64,000 bases of DNA. It comes from a bacterium (lineage in GTDB: Bacteria > SZUA-182 > DTGQ01 > JBLIRR01). The notes below the pieces were generated by a model. That model was not told the origin of the DNA. It saw only the letters and a program-made list of their open reading frames with translations, and ran no database searches. Position numbers and translations under genes: made by a program. Shown here in pieces: positions 5,426 through 59,455 of the stretch (the first letter of the stretch is position 1; the number at the start of each line of letters is the position of its first letter). The DNA lies in assembly GCA_049472395.1 (NCBI GenBank), contig JBLIRR010000037.1:20-64019 (forward strand), written 5' to 3'.

Positions 5426-5911
5426 ATGGCACTTGGCAAGTTAAGGAAACGAAGGCAATTCGTGGCGCCTAAGCTTCAGATTACCTCAATGATGGATATG
5501 TTTACTATCATATTGATATTCCTCCTGTTCTCTTTCTCAAATAGGCCAGAAAGCATTCAATTTAATAAAGATTTAAAATTGCCCGAATCAGAAGCGAAAA
5601 TGGATTACAAGGACAATATAAAACTCATCCTCTCACGCTCGACTCTTCAATTGGAAAATAAAGTTGTTGCTGAAATAAAAGAGGGCAAAATTATAGGACT
5701 TAATCCGAGAAAGCTCAAGCAATCCAATCTCTATAGAGAACTCAAAGCCTATAGAAAGCAGGCAGATGCGTCAAACACTGATAAGGAGAGCAAAGAGGCG
5801 ATTTTATTTCTCTGCGATAAACGCCTCCCTTTTAAAACAATAAATAATATAGTCAAAACAGCAGCTATGGCAGGATTCCCTAATTTTCAATTTGGAGTAT
5901 TGAAAAAATGA
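5426..5911 (+). CDS. exbD: ExbD/TolR-family protein (second paralog)
   Basis: QITSMMDMFTIILIFLLF is the ExbD/TolR TM signature. The arrangement of one ExbB with two ExbD mirrors AglR/AglQ/AglS-type motors. Confidence 0.75.
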   Translation: MALGKLRKRRQFVAPKLQITSMMDMFTIILIFLLFSFSNRPESIQFNKDLKLPESEAKMDYKDNIKLILSRSTLQLENKVVAEIKEGKIIGLNPRKLKQSNLYRELKAYRKQADASNTDKESKEAILFLCDKRLPFKTINNIVKTAAMAGFPNFQFGVLKK

Positions 5912-19553: not shown

Positions 19554-20992
19554 CCGAGTGATCGCAACCTCGCTTTGGTCTTCCTATCAATAATTATATA
19601 CGGGGAAGAGGAGGATGAGACGGCGGAATGACCGCCATAATGACGCACTGCGCACTCCAGTCTTCTCATCATCTCTTGTCTCATAGCCTGATATTCTTTT
19701 TGAAAAAAAAGATTATTTTCTTCATGAGTATCCTTCGCCAAATCGTATAATTCATGGTAGCCGTCACTGCTCCATATTAATTTCTTATTATCATGGATGA
19801 TACTTCTGAGTTGTCGTTTGAATTTCCGAATATTCTTGTTTTTTCTATCCTCTTCTTTAAAACATCGCAATGCTTGTTCGGGATAATAATACTCGCAGAA
19901 TACAATCTCTTCCTCCCCTCCCCTCTCTTTGAATAAATCATGTCCTTGAAAAAAATAATCATCGACACTCACATTCGCTCTCTTTAAGAGTGTAGGGAAT
20001 ATATCGGTTAATTGGACCGGAGCATATTCCTTTGAAGGACCATCAATGAGTTGCGGATCATGAATAATCAAGGGGATGCGTACTGCAGGTTCATAGAGGC
20101 AAAATACATGATCAACCAGATTATGATCCCCGATATTTTCTCCATGGTCTGAGGTTACTATAAACATAGTATTTTCCCACAGATTTCTCTTCTTGAGTTC
20201 TGTGATTATTTTCCCAATATAATAATCCACGTAAAGTATTTCTGCATCATAGAGTTTCTTCAGATGTGTGAGTTCTGCGTCTGAAAATTGTATCCTTCCG
20301 AGTAAATAATCTTGCCACCTGTTCGATTCACACGAAAGGATCGAATCTTGTAAAAACTGATTATAAAATTGTTGAGAGGAATCATAAGGAGCATGAGCTT
20401 CAATCAAATTAATAAAGATAAAGAAAGGTTTATTCTTATCCCTCTGTCTTAAGGACCGTTTCAGCAGACTAAATGCACTATTTTCTTCTGAAATCATGCA
20501 AGACAAAAGCAACCAAAAATCTTTTTTCCATGTCTCGTAATAGGTTGAAAATCCTTGATGGAAATTATACGGTTTTCCAAGCATTGGATTTTCTACAATG
20601 CCAATGGTCTCATAGCCTTCGCATGAGAGTACTTCTGCTAAGGTTGTTAATTGATCGCTCATTACCCAATATTCCTGTGATGTCTTATGGGAAATTGTAT
20701 AAAGACCCGTAAAAAGTGATGCATGTGCCGGCGAGGTCCAGCAGCTCGTTGAATAGGCATTGTAATATACTCGTGAGTTTCTTATGAGTTCATTTAAATG
20801 GGGCGTTGTTTCTCGCGAATATCCATAACATGATAAATGATCTTTGCGGACTGTATCCATAACAATCAGCATTATATTCGGTCCATCATTTTTTGCGATG
20901 AGACAATTTTTTTCCACAATTTTAAAAAGAATAATCACTGATATGCATGCTATGAGAGCGATTGTCCACAGTTTATTAGTAAATTTTTTCAT
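19520..20992 (-). CDS. Membrane-anchored alkaline-phosphatase-superfamily (sulfatase-like) enzyme
   Basis: N-terminal TM. Metal-site motifs IMLIVMDTVRKDH and VTSDHGENIGDH. The sulfatase signature position reads WTSPAH instead of C-x-P-x-R, so a Thr/Ser nucleophile is more likely than formylglycine (more LtaS/EptA-like than true sulfatase). Confidence 0.7.
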   Translation of the reverse strand: MKKFTNKLWTIALIACISVIILFKIVEKNCLIAKNDGPNIMLIVMDTVRKDHLSCYGYSRETTPHLNELIRNSRVYYNAYSTSCWTSPAHASLFTGLYTISHKTSQEYWVMSDQLTTLAEVLSCEGYETIGIVENPMLGKPYNFHQGFSTYYETWKKDFWLLLSCMISEENSAFSLLKRSLRQRDKNKPFFIFINLIEAHAPYDSSQQFYNQFLQDSILSCESNRWQDYLLGRIQFSDAELTHLKKLYDAEILYVDYYIGKIITELKKRNLWENTMFIVTSDHGENIGDHNLVDHVFCLYEPAVRIPLIIHDPQLIDGPSKEYAPVQLTDIFPTLLKRANVSVDDYFFQGHDLFKERGGEEEIVFCEYYYPEQALRCFKEEDRKNKNIRKFKRQLRSIIHDNKKLIWSSDGYHELYDLAKDTHEENNLFFQKEYQAMRQEMMRRLECAVRHYGGHSAVSSSSSPYIIIDRKTKARLRSLGYVATFPPGAR

Positions 20993-21174
20993 AGTACCCT
21001 ATAAATAACTTTTCTAGGGGTATTGACAATTCGATAAAATTGATTGTTTGATTTATTGAATAAATAATTGAGTAATTAAAGTAGGTATCTATAAAAATTA
21101 TAATACATTTGCTCTGAACCATGCAACCGGCAGAGTAAAAAATAATAATAAAAAATTTTTGAAAAGAATTCATA

Positions 21175-21235
21175 TGGTCTTTTTTTGCGATTCCGATAAA
21201 AGCGATGATGAGGGCAATCCGTTTGTGCCGTGTCA
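21175..21235 (+). pseudogene. Short gene fragment paralogous to lipoprotein gene 14170..15546
   Basis: TTTTTTGCGATTCCGATAAAAGCGATGATGAGGGCAATCCG at 21181..21221 matches TTTTTGCGATACCGATGAAAGCGATGATGAGAGCAATCCC at 14414..14453. The fragment encodes VFFCDSDKSDDEGNPF and the gene has VYFCDTDESDDESNPY. Confidence 0.5.
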
Positions 21236-21350
21236 AAATTCCGTCATAAAATAATATCAATGACTTATATAGCTGCCAATATAGACTGAGAAAATTCCGA
21301 TAGATATAATGGAAATTAAAAATATTATTTAAACCATTTTAAGGGGAGTT

Positions 21351-21590
21351 ATGGATATGAACCATTTTAAGCTAATATTAAGATTATTTTTTCCCCTTAT
21401 ATTCATTTGTTTAGTTTTCCCTATAAGGGCGTATGCGTATCTTGACCTTGGAAGTGCCAGCTATCTCTTGCAATTATTCCTGGCCAGTTTATTTGCGGGA
21501 TTGTTTCTCCTGAAAATGTACTGGAGAAAAATTGTGTCTTTTATTAGAAATCGACTTTATAACAAGAGAAATGGACAAATTGAAAAATAA
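21351..21590 (+). CDS. Small membrane protein
   Basis: RBS AGGGGAG. Two hydrophobic helices (LILRLFFPLIFICLVFPI and LLQLFLASLFAGLFLL). Confidence 0.4.
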   Translation: MDMNHFKLILRLFFPLIFICLVFPIRAYAYLDLGSASYLLQLFLASLFAGLFLLKMYWRKIVSFIRNRLYNKRNGQIEK

Positions 21591-22974
21591 TAACGGAAGG
21601 ATCTTCAGCTCCTTCCGGGATCCAAGTGGATACCTTTTTCATCGAAGTAATGCAATTTATCGTCAAGTAAACATTACTTATAAGGAAAATTATGATCATC
21701 TGATGAATTCAGGTCTTTATAAATCTTTAATAGAGAGTGAGTTGTTAATTTCTCATGAAGAAGTTGATATCGGATATGCTTTATCTAATAATGCCTACAA
21801 AATAATTAAACCGGAGCTAATAACTTTTATCTCATATCCTTATGAATGGTGTTTTGATCAGTTGAAGGATGCAGCATTAACTACACTTAAGATTCAAAAA
21901 AAATCATTAGATTTTGGAATGTCCTTAAAAGATTGCAGTGCCTACAATATACAATTTAAAAAAGGAAAATCTATATTTATAGATACACTTTCTTTTGAGA
22001 AATATCAGGAAGGGTGTCCCTGGAATGCTTATAGGCAGTTCTGTCAACATTTTCTCGCCCCTCTGGCTCTCATGAGTTATAAAGATATTCGACTAAATCA
22101 ATTATTACGAATTTATATAGATGGAATTCCTCTAAATTTGTCAAGTAAGCTTCTTCCATTTAGCTCTTACTTTGTTTTTTCACTATTTTCTCATATTCAC
22201 TTACACGCTCAATGTCAAAAATACTTTGCATATAAACCTATAAAAAAAAGAAGCCGCCGTAAAATAAGTCAGATAGCGTTATTAGGACTTGTTGAGAGCT
22301 TAGAATCTTGTGTAAAAAATTTAAAGTGGCGCCCTAAAAAGACAGAATGGTGCAACTATTATGATAATACTAATTATTCATGTGATTCCTTTAACCATAA
22401 AAAACAACTAGTAGCGGAGTTTTTTGATAAGATTAATCCAAAAATAGTGTGGGATCTTGGTGCAAACATCGGATCATTTAGTCGCATCGCAGCTAATAAA
22501 GGGACCCAAGTAATCTCTGTTGATAATGATCCCGTCTGCATTGAAAATAATTATCTTGAAAACAAAAAAAAAGGTGAGACTAATATTTTACCTTTGTTGC
22601 TGGATTTGACTAATCCAAGTTCTAGTATTGGCTGGGAAAATCAGGAAAGAATCTCTTTTATTGAGCGTGGTCCTGCTGACACAGTGCTTGCCTTGGCTTT
22701 AATTCATCATTTGGCTATTGTCAACAACCTCCCATTAAATATAATCGCAAAATTCTTTAATGGTATTTGTAATTCACTCATTATTGAATTCGTGCCAAAA
22801 TGCGACTCTCAGGTTCAGAGACTCTTATCAACGAGAGAAGATATTTTCCCCGGGTATACCCAAACTGCTTTTGAAAATGAATTTAGTAAATTCTTTATTA
22901 AAAAGGATTCTTCTAAAATCAGAGATACAAAAAGAATTCTATATCTTATGGTAAAGAAGAATAATAATCCATGA
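21571..22974 (+). CDS. Class I SAM-dependent methyltransferase with uncharacterised N-terminal domain
   Basis: Motif I VWDLGANIGSFS and post-I acidic VISVDND in the C-terminal half. Confidence 0.6.
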   Translation: MDKLKNNNGRIFSSFRDPSGYLFHRSNAIYRQVNITYKENYDHLMNSGLYKSLIESELLISHEEVDIGYALSNNAYKIIKPELITFISYPYEWCFDQLKDAALTTLKIQKKSLDFGMSLKDCSAYNIQFKKGKSIFIDTLSFEKYQEGCPWNAYRQFCQHFLAPLALMSYKDIRLNQLLRIYIDGIPLNLSSKLLPFSSYFVFSLFSHIHLHAQCQKYFAYKPIKKRSRRKISQIALLGLVESLESCVKNLKWRPKKTEWCNYYDNTNYSCDSFNHKKQLVAEFFDKINPKIVWDLGANIGSFSRIAANKGTQVISVDNDPVCIENNYLENKKKGETNILPLLLDLTNPSSSIGWENQERISFIERGPADTVLALALIHHLAIVNNLPLNIIAKFFNGICNSLIIEFVPKCDSQVQRLLSTREDIFPGYTQTAFENEFSKFFIKKDSSKIRDTKRILYLMVKKNNNP

Positions 22975-50645: not shown

Positions 50646-50724
50646 TCCACCAAAACCTTCTATAGATAATATTTATACCTCGTAAATAGTATCCATTATT
50701 ATCACAGCAGGTTTTCTGACTTTC

Positions 50725-50885
50725 GGATCATTCTACTTGCCTCGCCTTCCCATCTTAATGCTTTATACATTAAAGAAAGTGGCAATATGAGGTTTTCGTC
50801 CCCGATTACAGCGGCGGGTCCGTTCCCGATTTACACGAGATTCCCTATTAAGCTCACATTGAGCACAGTAATAATAATCGAGTTA
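50725..50885 (-). promoter_or_regulatory. Cobalamin (adenosylcobalamin/B12) riboswitch
   Basis: The minus strand contains AAUAGGGAAUCUCGUGUAAAUCGGGAACGGACCCGCCGCUGUAAUCGGGGACGAAAACC. This carries the conserved AAUAGGGAA, a GGACCCGCC-(B12 box GCCGCUG, one substitution from GCCACUG)-UAA block and a GGGGA-GAAA segment. Confidence 0.8.
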
Positions 50886-52231: not shown

Positions 52232-53731
52232 ATGATGCTCATCAATTATGCCGGTGGATGGCGAAACACTTTTACTCATTATTCCTTTAAATATATCTTT
52301 GACACTCTGACATCCTCTGATTATGAGGAATTAACTCAATTAAAAGATGCTATTATTATAGTGAGTAATGCTGCCTCCGGATATGATATTAAACCCATAC
52401 CTATTGAAAATAATTATCCTGGAGGAGGTATTTATGCCAATATTATCAATACTATCCTTACTGGGAATTTTCTTACAGAAGTGACTCCTTCAATGAATAT
52501 AATCATTATTTTTGTTATTAGTATTATTATCTCTTTATGCGGACTGTTTACCAATTGGCCCCTTAAAATACTATCGTTTATTCTTCTACTAAGCGGATAT
52601 ACTGTAATCAGTTTTTATGTATTTAAATCTTTCGGTATAGTCCTGCAGGTTGTATCTCCCTCCATAGCGATACTTTTAAGCAGCATGTTTGTCTCCTTTT
52701 ATCAGATACAATCTCAAAGGGGAGTGATCCTCAGTTTAAGTAAAGAGAAAAAAGAACTCGAAGAGGAATTAGCTTGTATTGGTACTAAAATTATAGAAAA
52801 GAATAATAAGATTTCAAGCCTAATGACTAAATTAACAGATAAAAATAATCACAACACTATTCAGCAATTAAAAGATGAGTTGCGTACGGAAAAGGATGAA
52901 AAGGAAAATCTTGAGAAAGAAAAGATAATGCTCATTCGTAAGCTCTCTCCTCTTGAAATTGAGGATTTGCGGAAAGAGGCTGAAAGGTTTCATATTATTA
53001 CGAGAGACAGAGGTCTTTTAGAGGCATTTGATCTTGGCAGAAGGGTCGCGTCATCAGATCATGGCGTATTGTTATTAGGGGAATCAGGGACAGGAAAAGA
53101 GCTCTTTGTCAATGCAATTCACGCCATGAGCAGAAGAAACCGAAGGACATTGGTTAAGGTGAATGTTGCCTCAATCGTGCCAACCCTTGCCGAAAGCGAA
53201 CTTTTTGGACATGTAAAAGGTGCTTTTGCAGGGGCTGATAGAGATAGGCAAGGACTATTTGAAAAGGCAGATAAGGGAACAATTTTTCTCGATGAGATTG
53301 GTGATCTTTTCCCTGATATACAGGCTAAGCTTCTTAGAATATTACAAGATGGGGAGATACGACCGGTTGGAAGCTCAACCTCTGTCTATATAGATGTAAG
53401 GGTAATAGCAGCTACTGACAAAAATCTCGATATGGAGGTAAGGGCCGGAAGATTCAATAAGGCCCTTTTTGCACGATTAAACAGATATCCTATTATTCTT
53501 CCTCCTTTAAAGGAGAGAGCAGAGGATATACCCTACCTTGTTGATGCCTTTATCAGAAGACATAAAGAAGGTAGGGATATTTCAGGGATTTCAAAAGAGG
53601 CTATTGAAATCCTCTACAATCATTCTTGGCCTGAAAATGTTCGGCAGTTAGAGAATGTGATTATAAGGAGCCTTATAAATACGCAGAATATAATACTTCA
53701 AAGCGATGATATCCAATATGCAATAAAATAG
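52232..53731 (+). CDS. Sigma-54-dependent activator: short CHASE2-like/TM N-terminus + AAA+ domain, ending at an in-frame TAG
   Basis: Three to four TM helices, then the Walker A motif GESGTGKE. GAFAGA (a variant of GAFTGA), arginine-finger region and ESELFGH. There is no HTH before the stop. Confidence 0.65.
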   Translation: MMLINYAGGWRNTFTHYSFKYIFDTLTSSDYEELTQLKDAIIIVSNAASGYDIKPIPIENNYPGGGIYANIINTILTGNFLTEVTPSMNIIIIFVISIIISLCGLFTNWPLKILSFILLLSGYTVISFYVFKSFGIVLQVVSPSIAILLSSMFVSFYQIQSQRGVILSLSKEKKELEEELACIGTKIIEKNNKISSLMTKLTDKNNHNTIQQLKDELRTEKDEKENLEKEKIMLIRKLSPLEIEDLRKEAERFHIITRDRGLLEAFDLGRRVASSDHGVLLLGESGTGKELFVNAIHAMSRRNRRTLVKVNVASIVPTLAESELFGHVKGAFAGADRDRQGLFEKADKGTIFLDEIGDLFPDIQAKLLRILQDGEIRPVGSSTSVYIDVRVIAATDKNLDMEVRAGRFNKALFARLNRYPIILPPLKERAEDIPYLVDAFIRRHKEGRDISGISKEAIEILYNHSWPENVRQLENVIIRSLINTQNIILQSDDIQYAIK

Positions 53732-53845
53732 GAGTTATATACTGGATATGATAAACAGAATAAAAAAAATAATGATACCATAGATGAGGTTCGGGAACAA
53801 AAAGAGTGTATAGTCATAATAAAAAAACCTACCGAATATCACAAC

Positions 53846-54196
53846 TTGATTGGAGAATTGAGAAAGGTAAAATTCCGTATAAAAGAGGCTGCCAAAGTTT
53901 TGGATATGAGTAGAAACACTGTCACAGATCATTTAAAGGGTATATGCTTTAAATATCTTGTTGATCATAATAAGAAAATAAAAGATGCAGCCATTGCTAT
54001 TGCTGGTGATCCAAACATTTCACATACAGTAGAGAAAAAAATCAAAAAGCATTATGAAAATTTGCAATCCAACATTAAAGACTGTAATAATGCGGATAAA
54101 GCGAAACAGAAATGTAAAAGGATATATAAAAATATTCCTAATGAATATAATAATTATATTGAAATATTAGTGGATCACTTTTTTTCCCTCAAATGA
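53846..54196 (+). CDS. Fis-type HTH fragment, in frame with the preceding activator (probable 3' part of a split gene)
   Basis: KEAAKVLDMSRNTVTDHLKG matches the Fis-family HTH of NtrC-type activators. The whole 53732..53845 gap is open in the same frame as 52232..53731. Confidence 0.5.
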   Translation: MIGELRKVKFRIKEAAKVLDMSRNTVTDHLKGICFKYLVDHNKKIKDAAIAIAGDPNISHTVEKKIKKHYENLQSNIKDCNNADKAKQKCKRIYKNIPNEYNNYIEILVDHFFSLK

Positions 54197-55293: not shown

Positions 55294-55506
55294 TGCCTAA
55301 CTCTCCTTATAACTTGTTGAAATTAACATGTTTATGTATAATGCAATACTAGTACCATAAATTCAGATATTCATAAATATCGTTTTTTTTCTAATAACAG
55401 ATATGCTTTATTTGTATTTTCTGTCTATATATTTTCATACTAATATTAATATACCGGCTGTTTATATAATTATCAACAAATTAATGCACTTTCTATCTCT
55501 TTTAGC

Positions 55507-55536
55507 GTTAATTCCCCGCAGGTTGCTGCGGGGTAG
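55507..55536 (+). repeat. Solitary CRISPR-repeat-like palindromic element, copy A (GTTAATTCCCCGCAGGTTGCTGCGGGGTAG)
   Basis: A diverged second copy is at 59291..59321 with compensatory stem changes. No spacer array and no cas genes in the window. Confidence 0.5.
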
Positions 55537-55868
55537 TTCATTATCTAATATGCATTAGGAAATATTAGTTGATTCTTCTAATAAAATCTTATATAAATCT
55601 TATAATTTTTTCTCCTCCCTAATCTATTGTTTTAAATTTATAGATAGAGGTCTTTAAATTATTCCCTTATTTTATCTTTAAACTTTTTTTTAGATAATAG
55701 TTTATTGAATTTTTAATGGCCACTCAGGGTTCAATGTTTGAATTATTTTATTATTATCTTCTCACATAAAATTACTTAATGCTCAACAGGTTTTTACTCC
55801 AAAAAATCCGCACTACGGATTAGAAGTCCGTAGGTCGTTTATAGTCTCTTTTCTATCATTTTTTTTCC

Positions 55869-56069
55869 TTAGAATGTATGTTCACCCGCCGGAATCGCTG
55901 CAATACAAACAATGATCTTTGCCCATTGATTGATCATATTACGATTAGGCATGTATTCAAAATCAGCCAGCGATTCCGGTCGGTGTGCAGCAGATTTGTT
56001 GTACGCTGTTATCATCAGAGAGATACCAATTATTGATAATAATACTGTTATTCCATTTCTGGTAAACAT
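55869..56069 (-). CDS. Small membrane protein (hypothetical)
   Basis: 66-aa ORF with two hydrophobic helices. Weak. Confidence 0.25.
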   Translation of the reverse strand: MFTRNGITVLLSIIGISLMITAYNKSAAHRPESLADFEYMPNRNMINQWAKIIVCIAAIPAGEHTF

Positions 56070-56136
56070 CTATACTAAATTTGTCAATGTTAACTAACTC
56101 AGCTATTATTGAATCTCATTTTTAAAATAAGATAAC

Positions 56137-56406
56137 TTATTTAAAAAGGTCAGAGTGTGAGCCAGTCCTTTCAAAGATGATTTCTTCTTTTGTTGTTTTA
56201 TAAATAAGTAACCAATCCGGCTCAATGTGATATTCCCTTCTGCCTTTATAATTTCCAATTAGTTGAGGTTCTCGAAATCTTCTTTCAAGTGGCTTCTCAT
56301 TAACAAGTTGTATAATTACCTGTCTTAATTTTTCGATCTCTTTCCCTCTTTTTTGGACCTTTTTTAGATCCTTATGAAATTGCTTTGTATATGCAGGCTT
56401 TAGCAT
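56137..56406 (-). CDS. yafQ: Type II toxin, RelE/ParE superfamily (YafQ-like mRNA interferase)
   Basis: ...YKGRREYHIEPDWLLIYKTTKEEIIFERTGSHSDLF aligns closely with E. coli YafQ (…WKGYRDAHVEPDWILIYKLTDKLLRFERTGTHAALF). It abuts the antitoxin stop. Confidence 0.8.
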   Translation of the reverse strand: MLKPAYTKQFHKDLKKVQKRGKEIEKLRQVIIQLVNEKPLERRFREPQLIGNYKGRREYHIEPDWLLIYKTTKEEIIFERTGSHSDLFK

Positions 56407-56667
56407 TTATATCTTTAACTTTTCGAACATTTCATTTATATTAGAACAATGAATAACGTTTTTATCAGCATCTGTATCTTCAAAAACTTCTTTTGTTGTT
56501 TCGTTAGGGATGACTACAGGGAATGGTAGGCCCCGTCTTAATTTTACTTGATGATAAAATATATTAATTGCTTCTGTTGTAGATATGCCCAATTCTCGAA
56601 AAAGGTTTTCCACTTCTTTCTTTAAGTCAGGCTCAATTCTTGCTCTAACTGTTGCTGTTTTATTCAT
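56407..56667 (-). CDS. dinJ: Type II antitoxin, DinJ/RelB family
   Basis: MNKTATVRARIEPDLKKEVENLFRELGIS... matches DinJ (…VRARIDEDLKNQAADVLAGMGLT…). RBS AAGGAGG. Confidence 0.8.
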   Translation of the reverse strand: MNKTATVRARIEPDLKKEVENLFRELGISTTEAINIFYHQVKLRRGLPFPVVIPNETTKEVFEDTDADKNVIHCSNINEMFEKLKI

Positions 56668-56974
56668 TTTTAAATCCTCCTTTTTTTAAAGTAGCCCATA
56701 TGGGCTACTTTGTCAAATCTTAATCTAAAATAAAGGGAGGATTATGCATTATCTATTTGTTTTTTTACTAAAAATTGAATAAAATCACATATAAAATTAA
56801 ATTAGAAACTCACTACATAATTTTACTCGCAACATAAGAGCGCCTTGAACTAATCCTTTATTTGTTCTGCAATTTTTTATAAATCAAATAGTTCATTAAA
56901 CATCTTAATTTTTACAAATATATATTTTAAAATTTTCTTCTTATAAACTATTCTTATTTATGTAACCTTTCTGC

Positions 56975-57640
56975 TTAGAAAATGCATTTTGATACAAAAA
57001 AACAAATTCCAATGGAGGCATAGTGAGACCTGACAGCTTCTTTAAGAGTAACTGGTGGATCGCTATAGCGAACACCTGCTGGGCATTGAACTTGGTCGAT
57101 TGCCTGCTTTGGAAACTTCGGCAAACCATTATCTTCAGCTAATTTAGTCAGCTTTAAAAGATCTTGGCTATGAGGAAAAGCCTTTCCTTTGTATTTCAAA
57201 TAAGATTTTAAAAGTTTTTCAGAAAACTGTAATGATGACCATTTTGAAAGACCATATTGCGGATTTTCATATTTATCTATGTCAGCATCACAGACAAAAT
57301 ATACAGAGCCAAAAATTTTAGGAAAGACAACTTTCCAAGGATCATTTTTTATTAAAATAACTCCACTTCCAATTCCTATCTCAGCTTTTAACCTATCACC
57401 ATATCTTTTCTCATACCAATTTTGAATATGGTTGGAAAGACTATTGCCCGAGAAATCATTTGGATTCGCATTTTCATATAATGGTACTAACGGAAGACTG
57501 ATTTTTAATCTTTTTCCTATTTCAATAGGCGCATGGATTGGTCGATTATAGATAGGAATAATCTTCTTTCTCAGATAATCGTCGATTTCCTCCATAAGAG
57601 ATTGAAACTCTAAAGCTGTTTTAGGAACCTCTGTAATCAT
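56975..57640 (-). CDS. Hypothetical protein (221 aa), no recognisable domain
   Basis: Long ORF with typical coding composition inside the AT-rich island. Confidence 0.45.
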   Translation of the reverse strand: MITEVPKTALEFQSLMEEIDDYLRKKIIPIYNRPIHAPIEIGKRLKISLPLVPLYENANPNDFSGNSLSNHIQNWYEKRYGDRLKAEIGIGSGVILIKNDPWKVVFPKIFGSVYFVCDADIDKYENPQYGLSKWSSLQFSEKLLKSYLKYKGKAFPHSQDLLKLTKLAEDNGLPKFPKQAIDQVQCPAGVRYSDPPVTLKEAVRSHYASIGICFFVSKCIF

Positions 57641-58192
57641 ATTTTTTTCATACAGAAAAGCTCACCGGCAGAAACCGATGATAAAACAAAGTGTTATCTT
57701 TAACAAATAATTATTTTTTTTTTTAAGATATCAAGAAAAATTCAAGAATACCTAAATAAGGATAAGGAAATACTTAAAGCATCGCAAAGATAAGTTTTTA
57801 GGTATTCTATGAAACATTTATAACGTTTGTTGGTTTTACCCTATATCAAGCCATTCACGTTCAGCAACAGATTGAAGATATTCTCTTTGTACCTCAAAGG
57901 AATATCCTTCTTTGGCTTGGTCTTCGAGGATATTATTCTCTCCTGTATTCTCTCTTCTTCTTTTTTATTGCACATCTCCTTATTTTTTGATATATTTTTC
58001 TATGCATATTTTTATGATAATTAACCTTTTTTTCTCTAGCTAAAATAGTAAAAGGAGGTGATATAAAAAAAATACAATAAATAGTAGTCAGGCAGGTAAG
58101 TTTTTCTTGATATTTAATTTAAGAATTTAGTATCCAAACTTATCTGAGTATTAAATCTTATTATTTTAAATACGGTTAAGGGAGATATTTTT

Positions 58193-58660
58193 ATGAATAA
58201 AAAAATTACATATTTTTATATAATAGCTATTTTTATAAGTTTAGCTTTAATTAGTACAAAAGCAATAGCTGCACCAACACCTCAAATGGTTAAAGAAGTT
58301 ATTGATTATTATTACAACGGTCAGAAAAGTGGACCAATATTGATGGAAGCAAAACTATGTAGGTCTATAGAAGATAATGAATGTATCGAAGAGATAAATA
58401 CTAAGGCTGTTCCTATAGGTGAAGCGACAAAAGTCTGGATGAAATTTTTAGTTCCAAGAGAGGCTTCTTATGATGATATTTTCGTAGAATATAAATATCA
58501 GGGAGTGCCCAGGCAACTATCTCCTTATAAAGTTGAGGGTTCTATTCGCTACAGAGTAATAAGTACTTTTAGACCTAATAAGGTTGGCGAGTGGACTATT
58601 ATTATTAAAAGAGGAAATAATGATTTAAAGGAATTTTCTATAAATGTAGTAGAAAAATAA
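58193..58660 (+). CDS. Secreted hypothetical protein
   Basis: RBS AAGGGAG. Signal peptide MNKKITYFYIIAIFISLALISTKAIA. Confidence 0.5.
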   Translation: MNKKITYFYIIAIFISLALISTKAIAAPTPQMVKEVIDYYYNGQKSGPILMEAKLCRSIEDNECIEEINTKAVPIGEATKVWMKFLVPREASYDDIFVEYKYQGVPRQLSPYKVEGSIRYRVISTFRPNKVGEWTIIIKRGNNDLKEFSINVVEK

Positions 58661-58668
58661 ATTTATAG

Positions 58669-58745
58669 ATACCCACGGGCCCACGCCCGTGGTACTTTAA
58701 AGGAATATTCTTACTCTCAGAGCATTCACCCCTGGGCTTACGCCC
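58669..58745. repeat. Pair of related GC-rich hairpins (CCACGGGC-ccac-GCCCGTGG and CCCTGGGC-ttac-GCCCAGGG)
   Basis: Two hairpins with 8-bp stems and 4-nt loops sit about 40 bp apart. They differ by compensatory base pairs. They lie between convergent genes in very AT-rich DNA. Confidence 0.45.
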
Positions 58746-58943
58746 AGGGTCCTCTGCTTATTTTGATAGTAAAATATAATAAAAATAACCCGTTACTATC
58801 AGGCTCTTTACACACTTTTAAAAATTTTGTTATAAGACATTGATTTTATTGACTATAAAATTGGACATTCAAAATAGTCCAGAATCCCTGCTAAATATAG
58901 AAAATGAATGTCCAATTATCGAAAGGCTGTAAAGAGCCTGTTA

Positions 58944-59276
58944 TTACTTAAAAATATCTATTAAAATCAATATCACTAGACAACCAAAAAAAATAGAAAT
59001 CGATAGATAGAATTTCTTAATAATCGGTCTAATCGCTTTCTTTTTTTCAATTATTTCTTCTGTGTCTAGATTATCTTCCCTCATAATATAACGACATATC
59101 TTGATATTATTATAGCCTGTTCCAAAACGAAATGATTCAACTTTCTCATTTGGTAACAGTCTGAGTAATCCCTTGGCTTTTATATTTCCTAGGAGCAACA
59201 TGATAATACCATAAATAAAAGCTATAACAGAAATAACCATAACAATAAATGTAATCATAATGTACTGTAGCTTCAC
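58944..59276 (-). CDS. Small 2-TM membrane protein, candidate immunity protein for the upstream RHS toxin
   Basis: Immediately 3' of the RHS gene on the same strand. Two TM helices (IMITFIVMVISVIAFIYGIIMLLL and LSISIFFGCLVILILI). Confidence 0.45.
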   Translation of the reverse strand: MKLQYIMITFIVMVISVIAFIYGIIMLLLGNIKAKGLLRLLPNEKVESFRFGTGYNNIKICRYIMREDNLDTEEIIEKKKAIRPIIKKFYLSISIFFGCLVILILIDIFK

Positions 59277-59290
59277 TACACTATTTATAT

Positions 59291-59321
59291 TAATCCCCTT
59301 AGGGTTTAATTCCCCGCCGCT
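59291..59321 (+). repeat. Solitary CRISPR-repeat-like palindromic element, copy B (GTTTAATTCCCCGCCGCTTGCGGCGGGGTAG)
   Basis: Same flanks (GTT(T)AATT...GGGGTAG) as copy A. The stem is CCCCGCCGC/GCGGCGGGG here and CCCCGCAG/CTGCGGGG in copy A. Confidence 0.5.
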
Positions 59322-59455
59322 TGCGGCGGGGTAGTTTATTTCTATTTATACAATAAATTAAATAATAAAATATTATAATAAATACAATAATACTTAAATA
59401 ATATTAATTAAAAATAGTAATAAATATTTATTTTTCATATAAAGGAAACTTTATT

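Follow-up and report, generated by a model that had tools for sequence, protein, structure and literature searches.

Two short palindromic repeats, copies A and B, lie at the borders of an AT-rich segment in a 64,000-nt stretch of a bacterial genome (contig JBLIRR010000037.1, positions 20 to 64,019; hereafter the window). Both copies are very probably non-autonomous miniature derivatives of an insertion sequence (IS) of the IS200 group (IS200/IS605 family). Each consists of a flank of the type found at the left end (LE) of such elements (TC..GGGT.TAATT), one hairpin, and a tail of the type found at their right end (RE; GGGG-TAGTTYATT), and the two halves of the motif flank transposase genes in full-length elements of other bacteria. 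The kind of element is known, whereas the very small 47-nt form is widespread and mostly unannotated. A first-pass annotation of the window had offered, among other readings, a new structured repeat family; a dispersed structured family does exist, but as fused IS200/IS605 ends it is not new in kind.

Two 47-nt units with perfect hairpins

Copy A is a palindrome at 55507-55536 on the plus strand, where it had been placed before, and copy B is a palindrome at 59304-59334 on the same strand, 13 nt to the right of the position formerly given (59291), so that the end coordinate formerly assigned to the region (59321) cuts its hairpin. Both match the sequences quoted for them exactly. Each forms an 8-bp stem with no mismatch and a 4-nt loop, CCCCGCAG-GTTG-CTGCGGGG in copy A and CCCCGCCG-CTTG-CGGCGGGG in copy B, and they differ by one compensatory stem pair (A-T in copy A, C-G in copy B) and one loop base (G to C), which bears out the earlier description of two perfect palindromes with compensatory changes. 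The flanks are shared, as had been noticed, and the shared unit is longer than reported and exceeds the palindrome, covering 47 nt in each copy (55496-55542 and 59294-59340). The features of the two copies, read as miniature IS derivatives, are as follows.

55491..55495, plus strand: TTCTA, pentanucleotide 5' of copy A, at the position of the TTTAA target/left cleavage site, of which it is a degenerate version
55496..55542, plus strand: copy A mini-element, 47 nt, with TCTCTTTTAGCGTTAATT left-end flank, hybrid hairpin and TAGTTCATT right-end tail
55514..55533, plus strand: copy A hairpin, 8-bp stem, GTTG loop
59289..59293, plus strand: ATTAA, pentanucleotide 5' of copy B, at the target/left cleavage-site position
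59294..59340, plus strand: copy B mini-element, 47 nt, with TCCCCTTAGGGTTTAATT left-end flank, hybrid hairpin and TAGTTTATT right-end tail
59312..59331, plus strand: copy B hairpin, 8-bp stem, CTTG loop, also flagged by a terminator-like scan that did not flag copy A

The pattern TTCCCCGC-N8-GCGGGGTAG, searched with up to 2 mismatches, occurs twice in the window, both times without mismatch, compared to 0.01 occurrences expected; a count of 2 was reached in none of 100 shuffles, and the simpler pattern CCCCGC-N0-14-GCGGGG finds the same two sites. A covariance model of the family (R1), run over the 64 kb with filters off, recovered copy B (72 bits, E = 1e-10) and copy A (62 bits, E = 8e-9) alone, the runner-up scoring 16 bits. 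Folded as single-stranded DNA and compared with shuffled controls, the two copies gave z-scores of -5.6 (copy A, -11.1 kcal/mol) and -5.2. The termini of the mini-elements, TCTC.. and ..CATT, are not inverted repeats. Their immediate flanks read TTCTA/ATCTA.. for copy A and ATTAA/TCTAT.. for copy B, and the partial TCTA resemblance across the flanks of copy A is taken as chance.

Full-length IS200 elements carry both ends of the motif

The family was identified by relaxed blastn searches against plasmids of cultured bacteria, which revealed diverged copies in Xenorhabdus, Piscirickettsia, Citrobacter, Edwardsiella, Pantoea, Acaryochloris, Pseudanabaena, Kovacikia, Chroococcidiopsis, Ca. Megaera and an E. 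coli plasmid. An annotated IS200/IS605 family transposase gene separates the two query halves, 537 bp apart, in Ca. Megaera polyxenophila, where the element reads (TTTAA)ATCTCTTTTGGGTATATTCCCCGCCGCTTGCGGCG-TAAGATGTGGGG-ATG ... stop-AATTCTAAAATACCCCGCTGCTTGCGGCGGGGATTTCTTTTATT. Both halves likewise flank a tnpA gene for a Y1 transposase of 147-150 aa in Pseudanabaena, Acaryochloris and a multi-copy metagenomic IS. When the Megaera TnpA was used as a tblastn query, homologues with 70-79% identity appeared in Kovacikia, Pseudanabaena, Chroococcidiopsis, Edwardsiella, Pantoea and Acaryochloris, adjoining the hairpin matches found earlier. The hairpin begins 3-11 nt past the stop codon in all six elements whose ends were read, and a matching left end precedes tnpA in four of them (Megaera in two plasmids, Pseudanabaena and Acaryochloris); for Pantoea and Edwardsiella the right-end hairpin was seen and the left end was not. 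The Acaryochloris right end terminates in GCAGCGGGGTAGTTCATT, a tail that it shares with the window copies.

The full-length element is about 570 bp long and consists of LE (TTTAA|TCTCT..GGGT(T/A)TAATT-CCCCGCYGCTTGCRGCG), the 147-150-aa Y1 (HUH) tnpA and RE (CCCCGCTGCTTGCRGCGGGG-(T/A)..TTYATT|), with no terminal inverted repeats. Its TnpA proteins match Pfam Y1_Tnp with E-values of 1e-36 to 1e-39 and score 123-138 bits against the NCBIfam equivalog transpos_IS200 (NF033573; cut-off 55). The clade comprises more than 7,900 proteins at E <= 1e-30, among which a close homologue (P0068) carries the NCBI name 'IS200/IS605-like element ISMac7 family'. One identical TnpA (P0087) was found within at least 8 different flanks, so that the exact ends of its element could be read as TTTAA|TCTCTTGGG ... 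GGGGAGGCTTCATT| (also given as TTTAA|TCTCTTGGGTTAAATTCCCCGCTGCTTGCAGCG ... ATACCCCGCTGCTTGCAGCGGGGAGGCTTCATT|); TTTAA precedes 8 of 8 of these insertions, the sequence to the right is unrelated from one to the next, and there is no target duplication. The same pentanucleotide precedes 69 of 84 short mini-copies. Traits of this kind define the IS200/IS605 family, whose members lack terminal inverted repeats, cause no duplication, carry subterminal hairpins that are bound by the Y1 HUH enzyme TnpA, and insert 3' of a fixed tetra- or pentanucleotide (PMC7290912; PMC5027513).

The window copies combine a left end and a right end

When aligned with these full-length ends, the left part of copy A shares 31 of 40 positions with the Ca. 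Megaera LE and its right part 25 of 30 with the Acaryochloris RE, the tail GGGGTAGTTCATT being identical, whereas copy B shares 35 of 40 positions with the LE and 26 of 30 with the RE of a full-length Pseudanabaena IS. Overall, the two copies match LE sequences at 31-35 of 40 positions and RE sequences at 23-26 of 30-33. The LE and RE hairpins themselves have about 17 nt in common (CCCCGCYGCTTGCRGCG). Deletion of everything between the two hairpins, tnpA included, would leave an LE flank, a hybrid hairpin and an RE tail, and these make up precisely the 47 nt found at the two window sites.

Forms intermediate between the full-length element and the mini-copies were also found. Elements of 100-125 nt without tnpA, with two hairpins 21-55 nt apart, are present in a Bacteroidota metagenome-assembled genome (MAG), the E. 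coli ET745 plasmid and Acaryochloris pREB3; Piscirickettsia has LE alone, Citrobacter has RE with a remnant of the TnpA C-terminus, and a megaplasmid of Xenorhabdus bovienii carries a one-hairpin mini-copy that scores 54 bits against the model. No clean empty sites were found for the E. coli and Xenorhabdus plasmid copies, whose flanks are mosaic.

The window copies have in common with the IS200 group, whose members encode tnpA alone, both end sequences, hairpins in a subterminal position, the lack of target duplication and of inverted repeats at the termini, single-strand asymmetry, and possibly a site 3' of a fixed pentanucleotide; they differ in their length of 47 nt, in lacking tnpA, and in having one hairpin instead of two. 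A second comparison is with the palindrome-associated transposable elements (PATEs), ends-only IS200/IS605 derivatives described in Haloquadratum walsbyi (PMC3119063) and also in Halanaerobium hydrogeniformans (PMC7290912). Like the window copies, PATEs are non-coding, consist of IS ends only and are presumed to be mobilized in trans, and the tnpA-less two-hairpin elements of Acaryochloris, the E. coli plasmid and the Bacteroidota MAG are PATEs of the same IS clade. On the other hand, the PATE-like element of H. hydrogeniformans (271 nt; PMC7290912) keeps LE and RE separate, whereas the window elements are several times shorter and collapsed to a single LE/RE hybrid hairpin. Under the strict definition of a PATE, in which both end palindromes are retained, the window copies fall outside the class.

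A dispersed family

A scan with the exact pattern TTAATTCCCC-N8-16-GGGGTAGTT, using one genome per species, yielded 107 loci, of which about 85 share one consensus (GGGT-TTAATT-CCCCGCNG-CTTG-CNGCGGGG-TAGTTCATT), and a stricter pattern added 81 loci from metagenomes (188 in total). Each of the 188 loci contains a single exact match, never an array; the covariance model adds second copies at a few loci, 0.4-4.6 kb away, and among pairs of nearby copies, the window included, six share a strand and two do not, a difference that is not significant. According to MAG labels, the hosts belong to Desulfobacterota, Bacteroidota, Gammaproteobacteria, Clostridia, Binatia, Planctomycetota, Omnitrophota, Cloacimonadota, Spirochaetota and Ignavibacteria, together with gut Bacillota and Muribaculaceae. 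The 47-nt unit, with about 40 nt nearly invariant, is present in at least ten phyla. The true matches to the strict pattern (L002-L108) all come from MAGs and none from cultured isolates. Cultured bacteria carry the family with slightly altered flanks, such as GGGTTATATT.. and ..GGGGTTGTTCATT in Xenorhabdus, which is why the exact-pattern scan missed them. Among 2.9 million viral contigs there were 3 matches, one confirmed as a family member, and a phage database search for the motif gave no match.

The full conserved unit runs from TTTAA|TC through a variable stretch to GGGTTTAATT and ends at GTAGTTCATT. The variable stretch measures from 3 to about 90 nt and is of a subtype specific to each genome, each MAG having its own LE-flank subtype. 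In one Bacteroidota MAG a composite variant with an internal partial duplication recurs at two different loci, which indicates that the unit was copied as a block.

The copies occupy more than 150 unrelated intergenic positions beside ordinary genes, including housekeeping genes such as lepA/lepB and those for transketolase subunits. Clustering of neighbor genes around 76 and then 157 copies revealed no conserved neighbor, and the single apparent cluster was an artefact of open reading frames (ORFs) reading through the element. The 124 flanking proteins fall into 148 Pfam families of ordinary metabolism, transport and housekeeping. All four orientation classes of flanking genes occur (23/14/10/9), with divergent pairs not depleted, and no cas or integrase genes lie beside the copies. 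One locus allows a comparison with and without the element. In a gammaproteobacterial MAG (L082, 1040-1300) the unit lies in sense orientation between lepA and lepB, and its terminus TTAATC supplies the lepA stop codon, whereas in a related MAG (L022, ~5550-5770) the two genes overlap (ATGA) with no element between them.

The unit appears to have largely escaped annotation. Rfam searches of the window and 16 related loci at gathering thresholds, followed by searches of the elements themselves with E-values as high as 10, gave nothing meaningful; none of the plasmid-database matches examined is annotated for the motif, and its sequence strings are absent from the searchable open-access literature, in which the primer matches were irrelevant (one Arthrospira type III-D repeat primer shares AATTCCCCGC in the full-text string search). 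The main value of the identification is in annotation. The 47-nt unit has no Rfam family, and its likeness to a type I-E CRISPR repeat or to a terminator can mislead readers and automated tools. In addition, the mini-elements mark past IS200 activity at places where no transposase is seen nearby.

Selection on a structure formed by one strand

The first-pass annotation had proposed selection on secondary structure, and this was substantiated. In an alignment of 81 copies the four variable stem pairs stay paired in 95.8% of cells, and the covariation score was matched by none of 500 shuffles; the most variable pair is AU in 33 sequences, UG in 20, CG in 5, GC in 4 and UA in 3. The stem structure is under selection. 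At the variable pairs G·T or T·G combinations were counted 42 times and A·C or C·A combinations 8 times, and because such wobbles far outnumber A·C mismatches, the hairpin need form on the top strand only. The loop is CTTG in 66 of the 81 copies, closed by a G-C pair.

An IS200 origin would account for this asymmetry. TnpA would bind the hairpin on the single-stranded top strand, at the lagging-strand template, and transposition would proceed by peel-and-paste; recognition of a single-stranded top-strand hairpin at the lagging-strand template has its basis in IS608 and ISDra2 (PMC5027513). Conservation of the hairpin as TnpA-bound single-stranded DNA is what we infer by analogy with those elements, and such recognition would lead both to the wobble asymmetry and to nearby copies tending to share a strand. 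Fused IS200 ends would also explain the compensatory stem changes of the window copies with no need for CRISPR.

Mobility and points that weigh against an IS200 origin

Several observations weigh against reading the copies as miniature IS200 derivatives. No tnpA was detected by tblastn in the 64-kb window, and none of the cognate type lies within 5-6 kb of 157 mini-copies, the presence of a cognate transposase in the source genome being assumed. The window copies follow TTCTA and ATTAA instead of TTTAA. The filled and empty lepA/lepB loci, whose proteins are 50-72% identical, do not give exact insertion boundaries. Canonical IS200/IS605 transposition uses one hairpin per end, whereas the mini-elements have a single hairpin where the canonical reaction has two, and their mobility is unproven.

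One other transposase gene was considered. A 229-aa Y1 gene, located by BLAST with an IS200 TnpA sequence, lies 3 kb from a family copy; it is not flanked by the motif and was assigned to a different element. This element (L072, 600-1760, the same as L186) interrupts a gene beside a HigB/HigA pair; its Y1 transposase has a Cys-rich extension at the N-terminus, and the element is of IS200/IS605 type with unusual flanks, formed by direct repeats of about 40 nt.

Assuming the IS200 origin, the mini-elements may move with TnpA supplied in trans, or each may be what remains of a full-length insertion, a solo relic comparable to solo long terminal repeats, and the question raised is whether TnpA can still move a single-hairpin element. 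The ATTAA 5' of copy B is predicted to pair with the TTAAT directly 5' of the hairpin, which suggests that the mini-elements may be movable. A bolder proposal, which we regard as doubtful, is that a single hybrid hairpin between TTTAA (about 18 nt upstream) and ..TTCATT (9 nt downstream) would be a complete minimal Y1 substrate and the 47-nt units transposition-competent. If so, they would be among the smallest such elements of which we are aware, and same-strand mini-elements such as A and B could mobilize the intervening 3.85 kb as cargo. The empty sites expected for the two insertions would read ...CACTTTCTA|ATCTAATATG... for copy A and ...TATATTAA|TCTATTTATA... for copy B.

The AT-rich segment between the copies

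The segment between the copies is AT-rich, as stated in the first-pass annotation, with a GC content of 30.1% compared to 39.1% for the rest of the window, and ranks at the bottom among all windows of 3.75 kb, for which the lowest value observed was 30.0%. At ~20000-22500 another patch of low GC content (30-32%) is as AT-rich as the segment and has no mini-element. The features of the segment are listed below.

55543..59288, no strand: AT-rich segment between the copies, belonging to neither element
Within 55543..59288: 66-aa ORF
56137-56406, minus strand: yafQ (YafQ PF15738, E = 1e-31)
56407-56667, minus strand: relB/dinJ (RelB PF04221, E = 2e-9)
56688-56711: perfect 24-nt palindrome AAAGTAGCCCATATGGGCTACTTT, 21 nt upstream of the relB/dinJ start codon
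56975-57640, minus strand: 221-aa ORF, HEPN-related
58193-58660, plus strand: 155-aa ORF with a signal-peptide-like N-terminus
58944-59276, minus strand: 110-aa membrane ORF, proposed RHS immunity gene

The dinJ-yafQ pair was recognized correctly in the first-pass annotation, and the palindrome upstream of it is likely the operator of the toxin-antitoxin operon. The 221-aa protein had been described as belonging to no known family, which does not hold: over about 55% of its length it is 44-69% identical to proteins of ~300 aa, several of which carry Pfam HEPN, and its gene looks like one of HEPN type that has been truncated or rearranged. The closest full-length HEPN homologues are encoded in co-directional arrays of small genes (L216, 1-8871, and L217, 1-6577) that include VapB, PIN, HEPN, cupins and CopG at a spacing of 70-130 nt, a layout like that of an integron cassette array. 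A gap of 180 nt separates the RHS stop codon from the 110-aa membrane ORF, and copy B sits in it (59335-59455, 58944-59276). As immunity genes usually directly abut their toxin gene, either a mini-IS was inserted between the two or the 110-aa ORF is not the immunity gene.

The bracketing of accessory genes by the two copies could be explained by a composite transposon, in which 55496-59340 would be a 3.85-kb IS200-type unit with copy A as left end and copy B as right end, carrying dinJ-yafQ and small genes as cargo and using TnpA in trans. The copies do have the same orientation, their outer ends jointly give the complete LE...RE architecture that a single mini-element lacks, the drop in GC coincides with the bracket to about 200 nt, and a toxin-antitoxin pair and a HEPN-like fragment are typical accessory DNA. 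We nevertheless consider this arrangement improbable. At other loci ordinary genes lie between paired copies, one example being that for a transketolase subunit (L096), same-strand pairs (6 of 8) are expected anyway from lagging-strand bias, the adjacent intergenic DNA is AT-rich regardless, and neither a second copy of the segment nor an empty site was found. No mini-IS was found at the loci that code for the HEPN-type homologues of the cargo. Searches for a related locus, by look-ups of the window proteins and a metagenome scan with the 330-aa neighbor, gave none; their sole match was a 1.3-kb contig with an identical 155-aa gene.

The preferred reading is that copies A and B most likely landed independently in AT-rich accessory DNA. 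The density of TTTAA/TTAAA is 12.8 per kb in the segment and 6.0 elsewhere, and this twofold excess makes two independent insertions plausible. Nothing ties the origin of the segment to the two elements, which do not define an island, and the earlier suggestion that they are boundaries of an integrated element, set against a motif that elsewhere lies between housekeeping genes and cargo homologues that occur without it, gained no positive support.

Other explanations for the hairpins

The host could instead have retained the hairpin mainly as a functional RNA or a signal in transcription, acting as a terminator, a stabilizer of mRNA 3' ends or a small RNA, its similarity to IS ends being ancestral or incidental. 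Such a role would fit the CUUG loop closed by G-C in 66 of 81 copies, the tolerance of wobbles on one strand only, the terminator-like scan match of copy B, and the copies found in sense orientation inside operons such as lepA-lepB. We hold it to be unlikely, since the copies prefer no orientation or position relative to genes, the consensus has no U-tract after the hairpin, no Rfam family matches, and the LE and RE of an element that encodes a transposase account for the conserved flanks base by base; single-strand specificity would be expected just as much of DNA bound by TnpA.

Repetitive extragenic palindromic (REP) sequences maintained by a domesticated REP-associated tyrosine transposase (RAYT) are linked to a Y1 HUH enzyme as well, and they share with the family the form of short, extragenic, GC-rich hairpins, several per genome, with genome-specific subfamilies. 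Several of the TnpA homologues even bear the JGI label 'REP element-mobilizing transposase RayT'. The proteins pass the IS200 equivalog model and fail the RAYT model (NF047646; 27-35 bits, cut-off 80), which places the enzyme in the IS200 class. The tnpA gene is multi-copy and flanked by hairpins that are direct rather than inverted, neither GTAG nor GTGG stands 5' of the hairpin, and the 64 kb hold just 2 copies. A REP/RAYT system is on these grounds very improbable.

Orphan or degenerate CRISPR repeats of type I-E-like form, or RNA mimics of them, are effectively refuted. The lead came from the minus strand, which reads CCCCGC..GCGGGG-AATTAAACC and resembles a type I-E repeat, that is, a hairpin plus ATAAACCG; the CCCCGC...GCGGGG stem-loop and the AT-rich flanks of similar length are common to both, and there is a weak minus-strand match to Rfam CRISPR-DR10. 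This match scores 13-14 bits compared to a cut-off of 39, and the window copies, 3.8 kb apart, come with no array, spacers or cas genes. The motif is never arrayed in the 188 loci and has no cas genes near any copy; in 2.9 million viral contigs it gave the three matches already mentioned, one of them a true member. The structural constraint, moreover, acts on the opposite strand, the I-E-like strand carrying A·C mismatches in the hairpin of many copies.

The idea that copies A and B are attL/attR attachment sites that an integrase left behind on inserting a genomic island has next to no probability: they are direct repeats that bracket AT-rich accessory genes, but the segment and its borders contain neither an integrase nor a recombinase (none between positions 52 and 64 kb, in line with the first-pass annotation), more than 150 unrelated loci in many phyla have the same sequence, and the stem shows covariation, for which a crossover site acting as double-stranded DNA would have no need. 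Likenesses to an integron attC site, a hammerhead, a pistol, a Cas12/Cas13 repeat and a tRNA T-arm were considered and dropped, for lack either of the defining motifs or of arrays and partner genes; in the case of attC, the R''/R' core sites (RYYYAAC / GTTRRRY) were absent on inspection of both copies.

Further features of the window

A Cobalamin riboswitch was detected at 50689-50885 on the minus strand (108 bits, gathering score 31.5), upstream of a minus-strand gene block that ends at ~50.5 kb. At 52232-54196 on the plus strand, a sigma-54 activator ORF of 499 aa retains only the last third of a CHASE2 domain, and its Fis-type helix-turn-helix is encoded 115 nt further downstream by an ORF of its own (116 aa); the activator gene is probably disrupted or rearranged.

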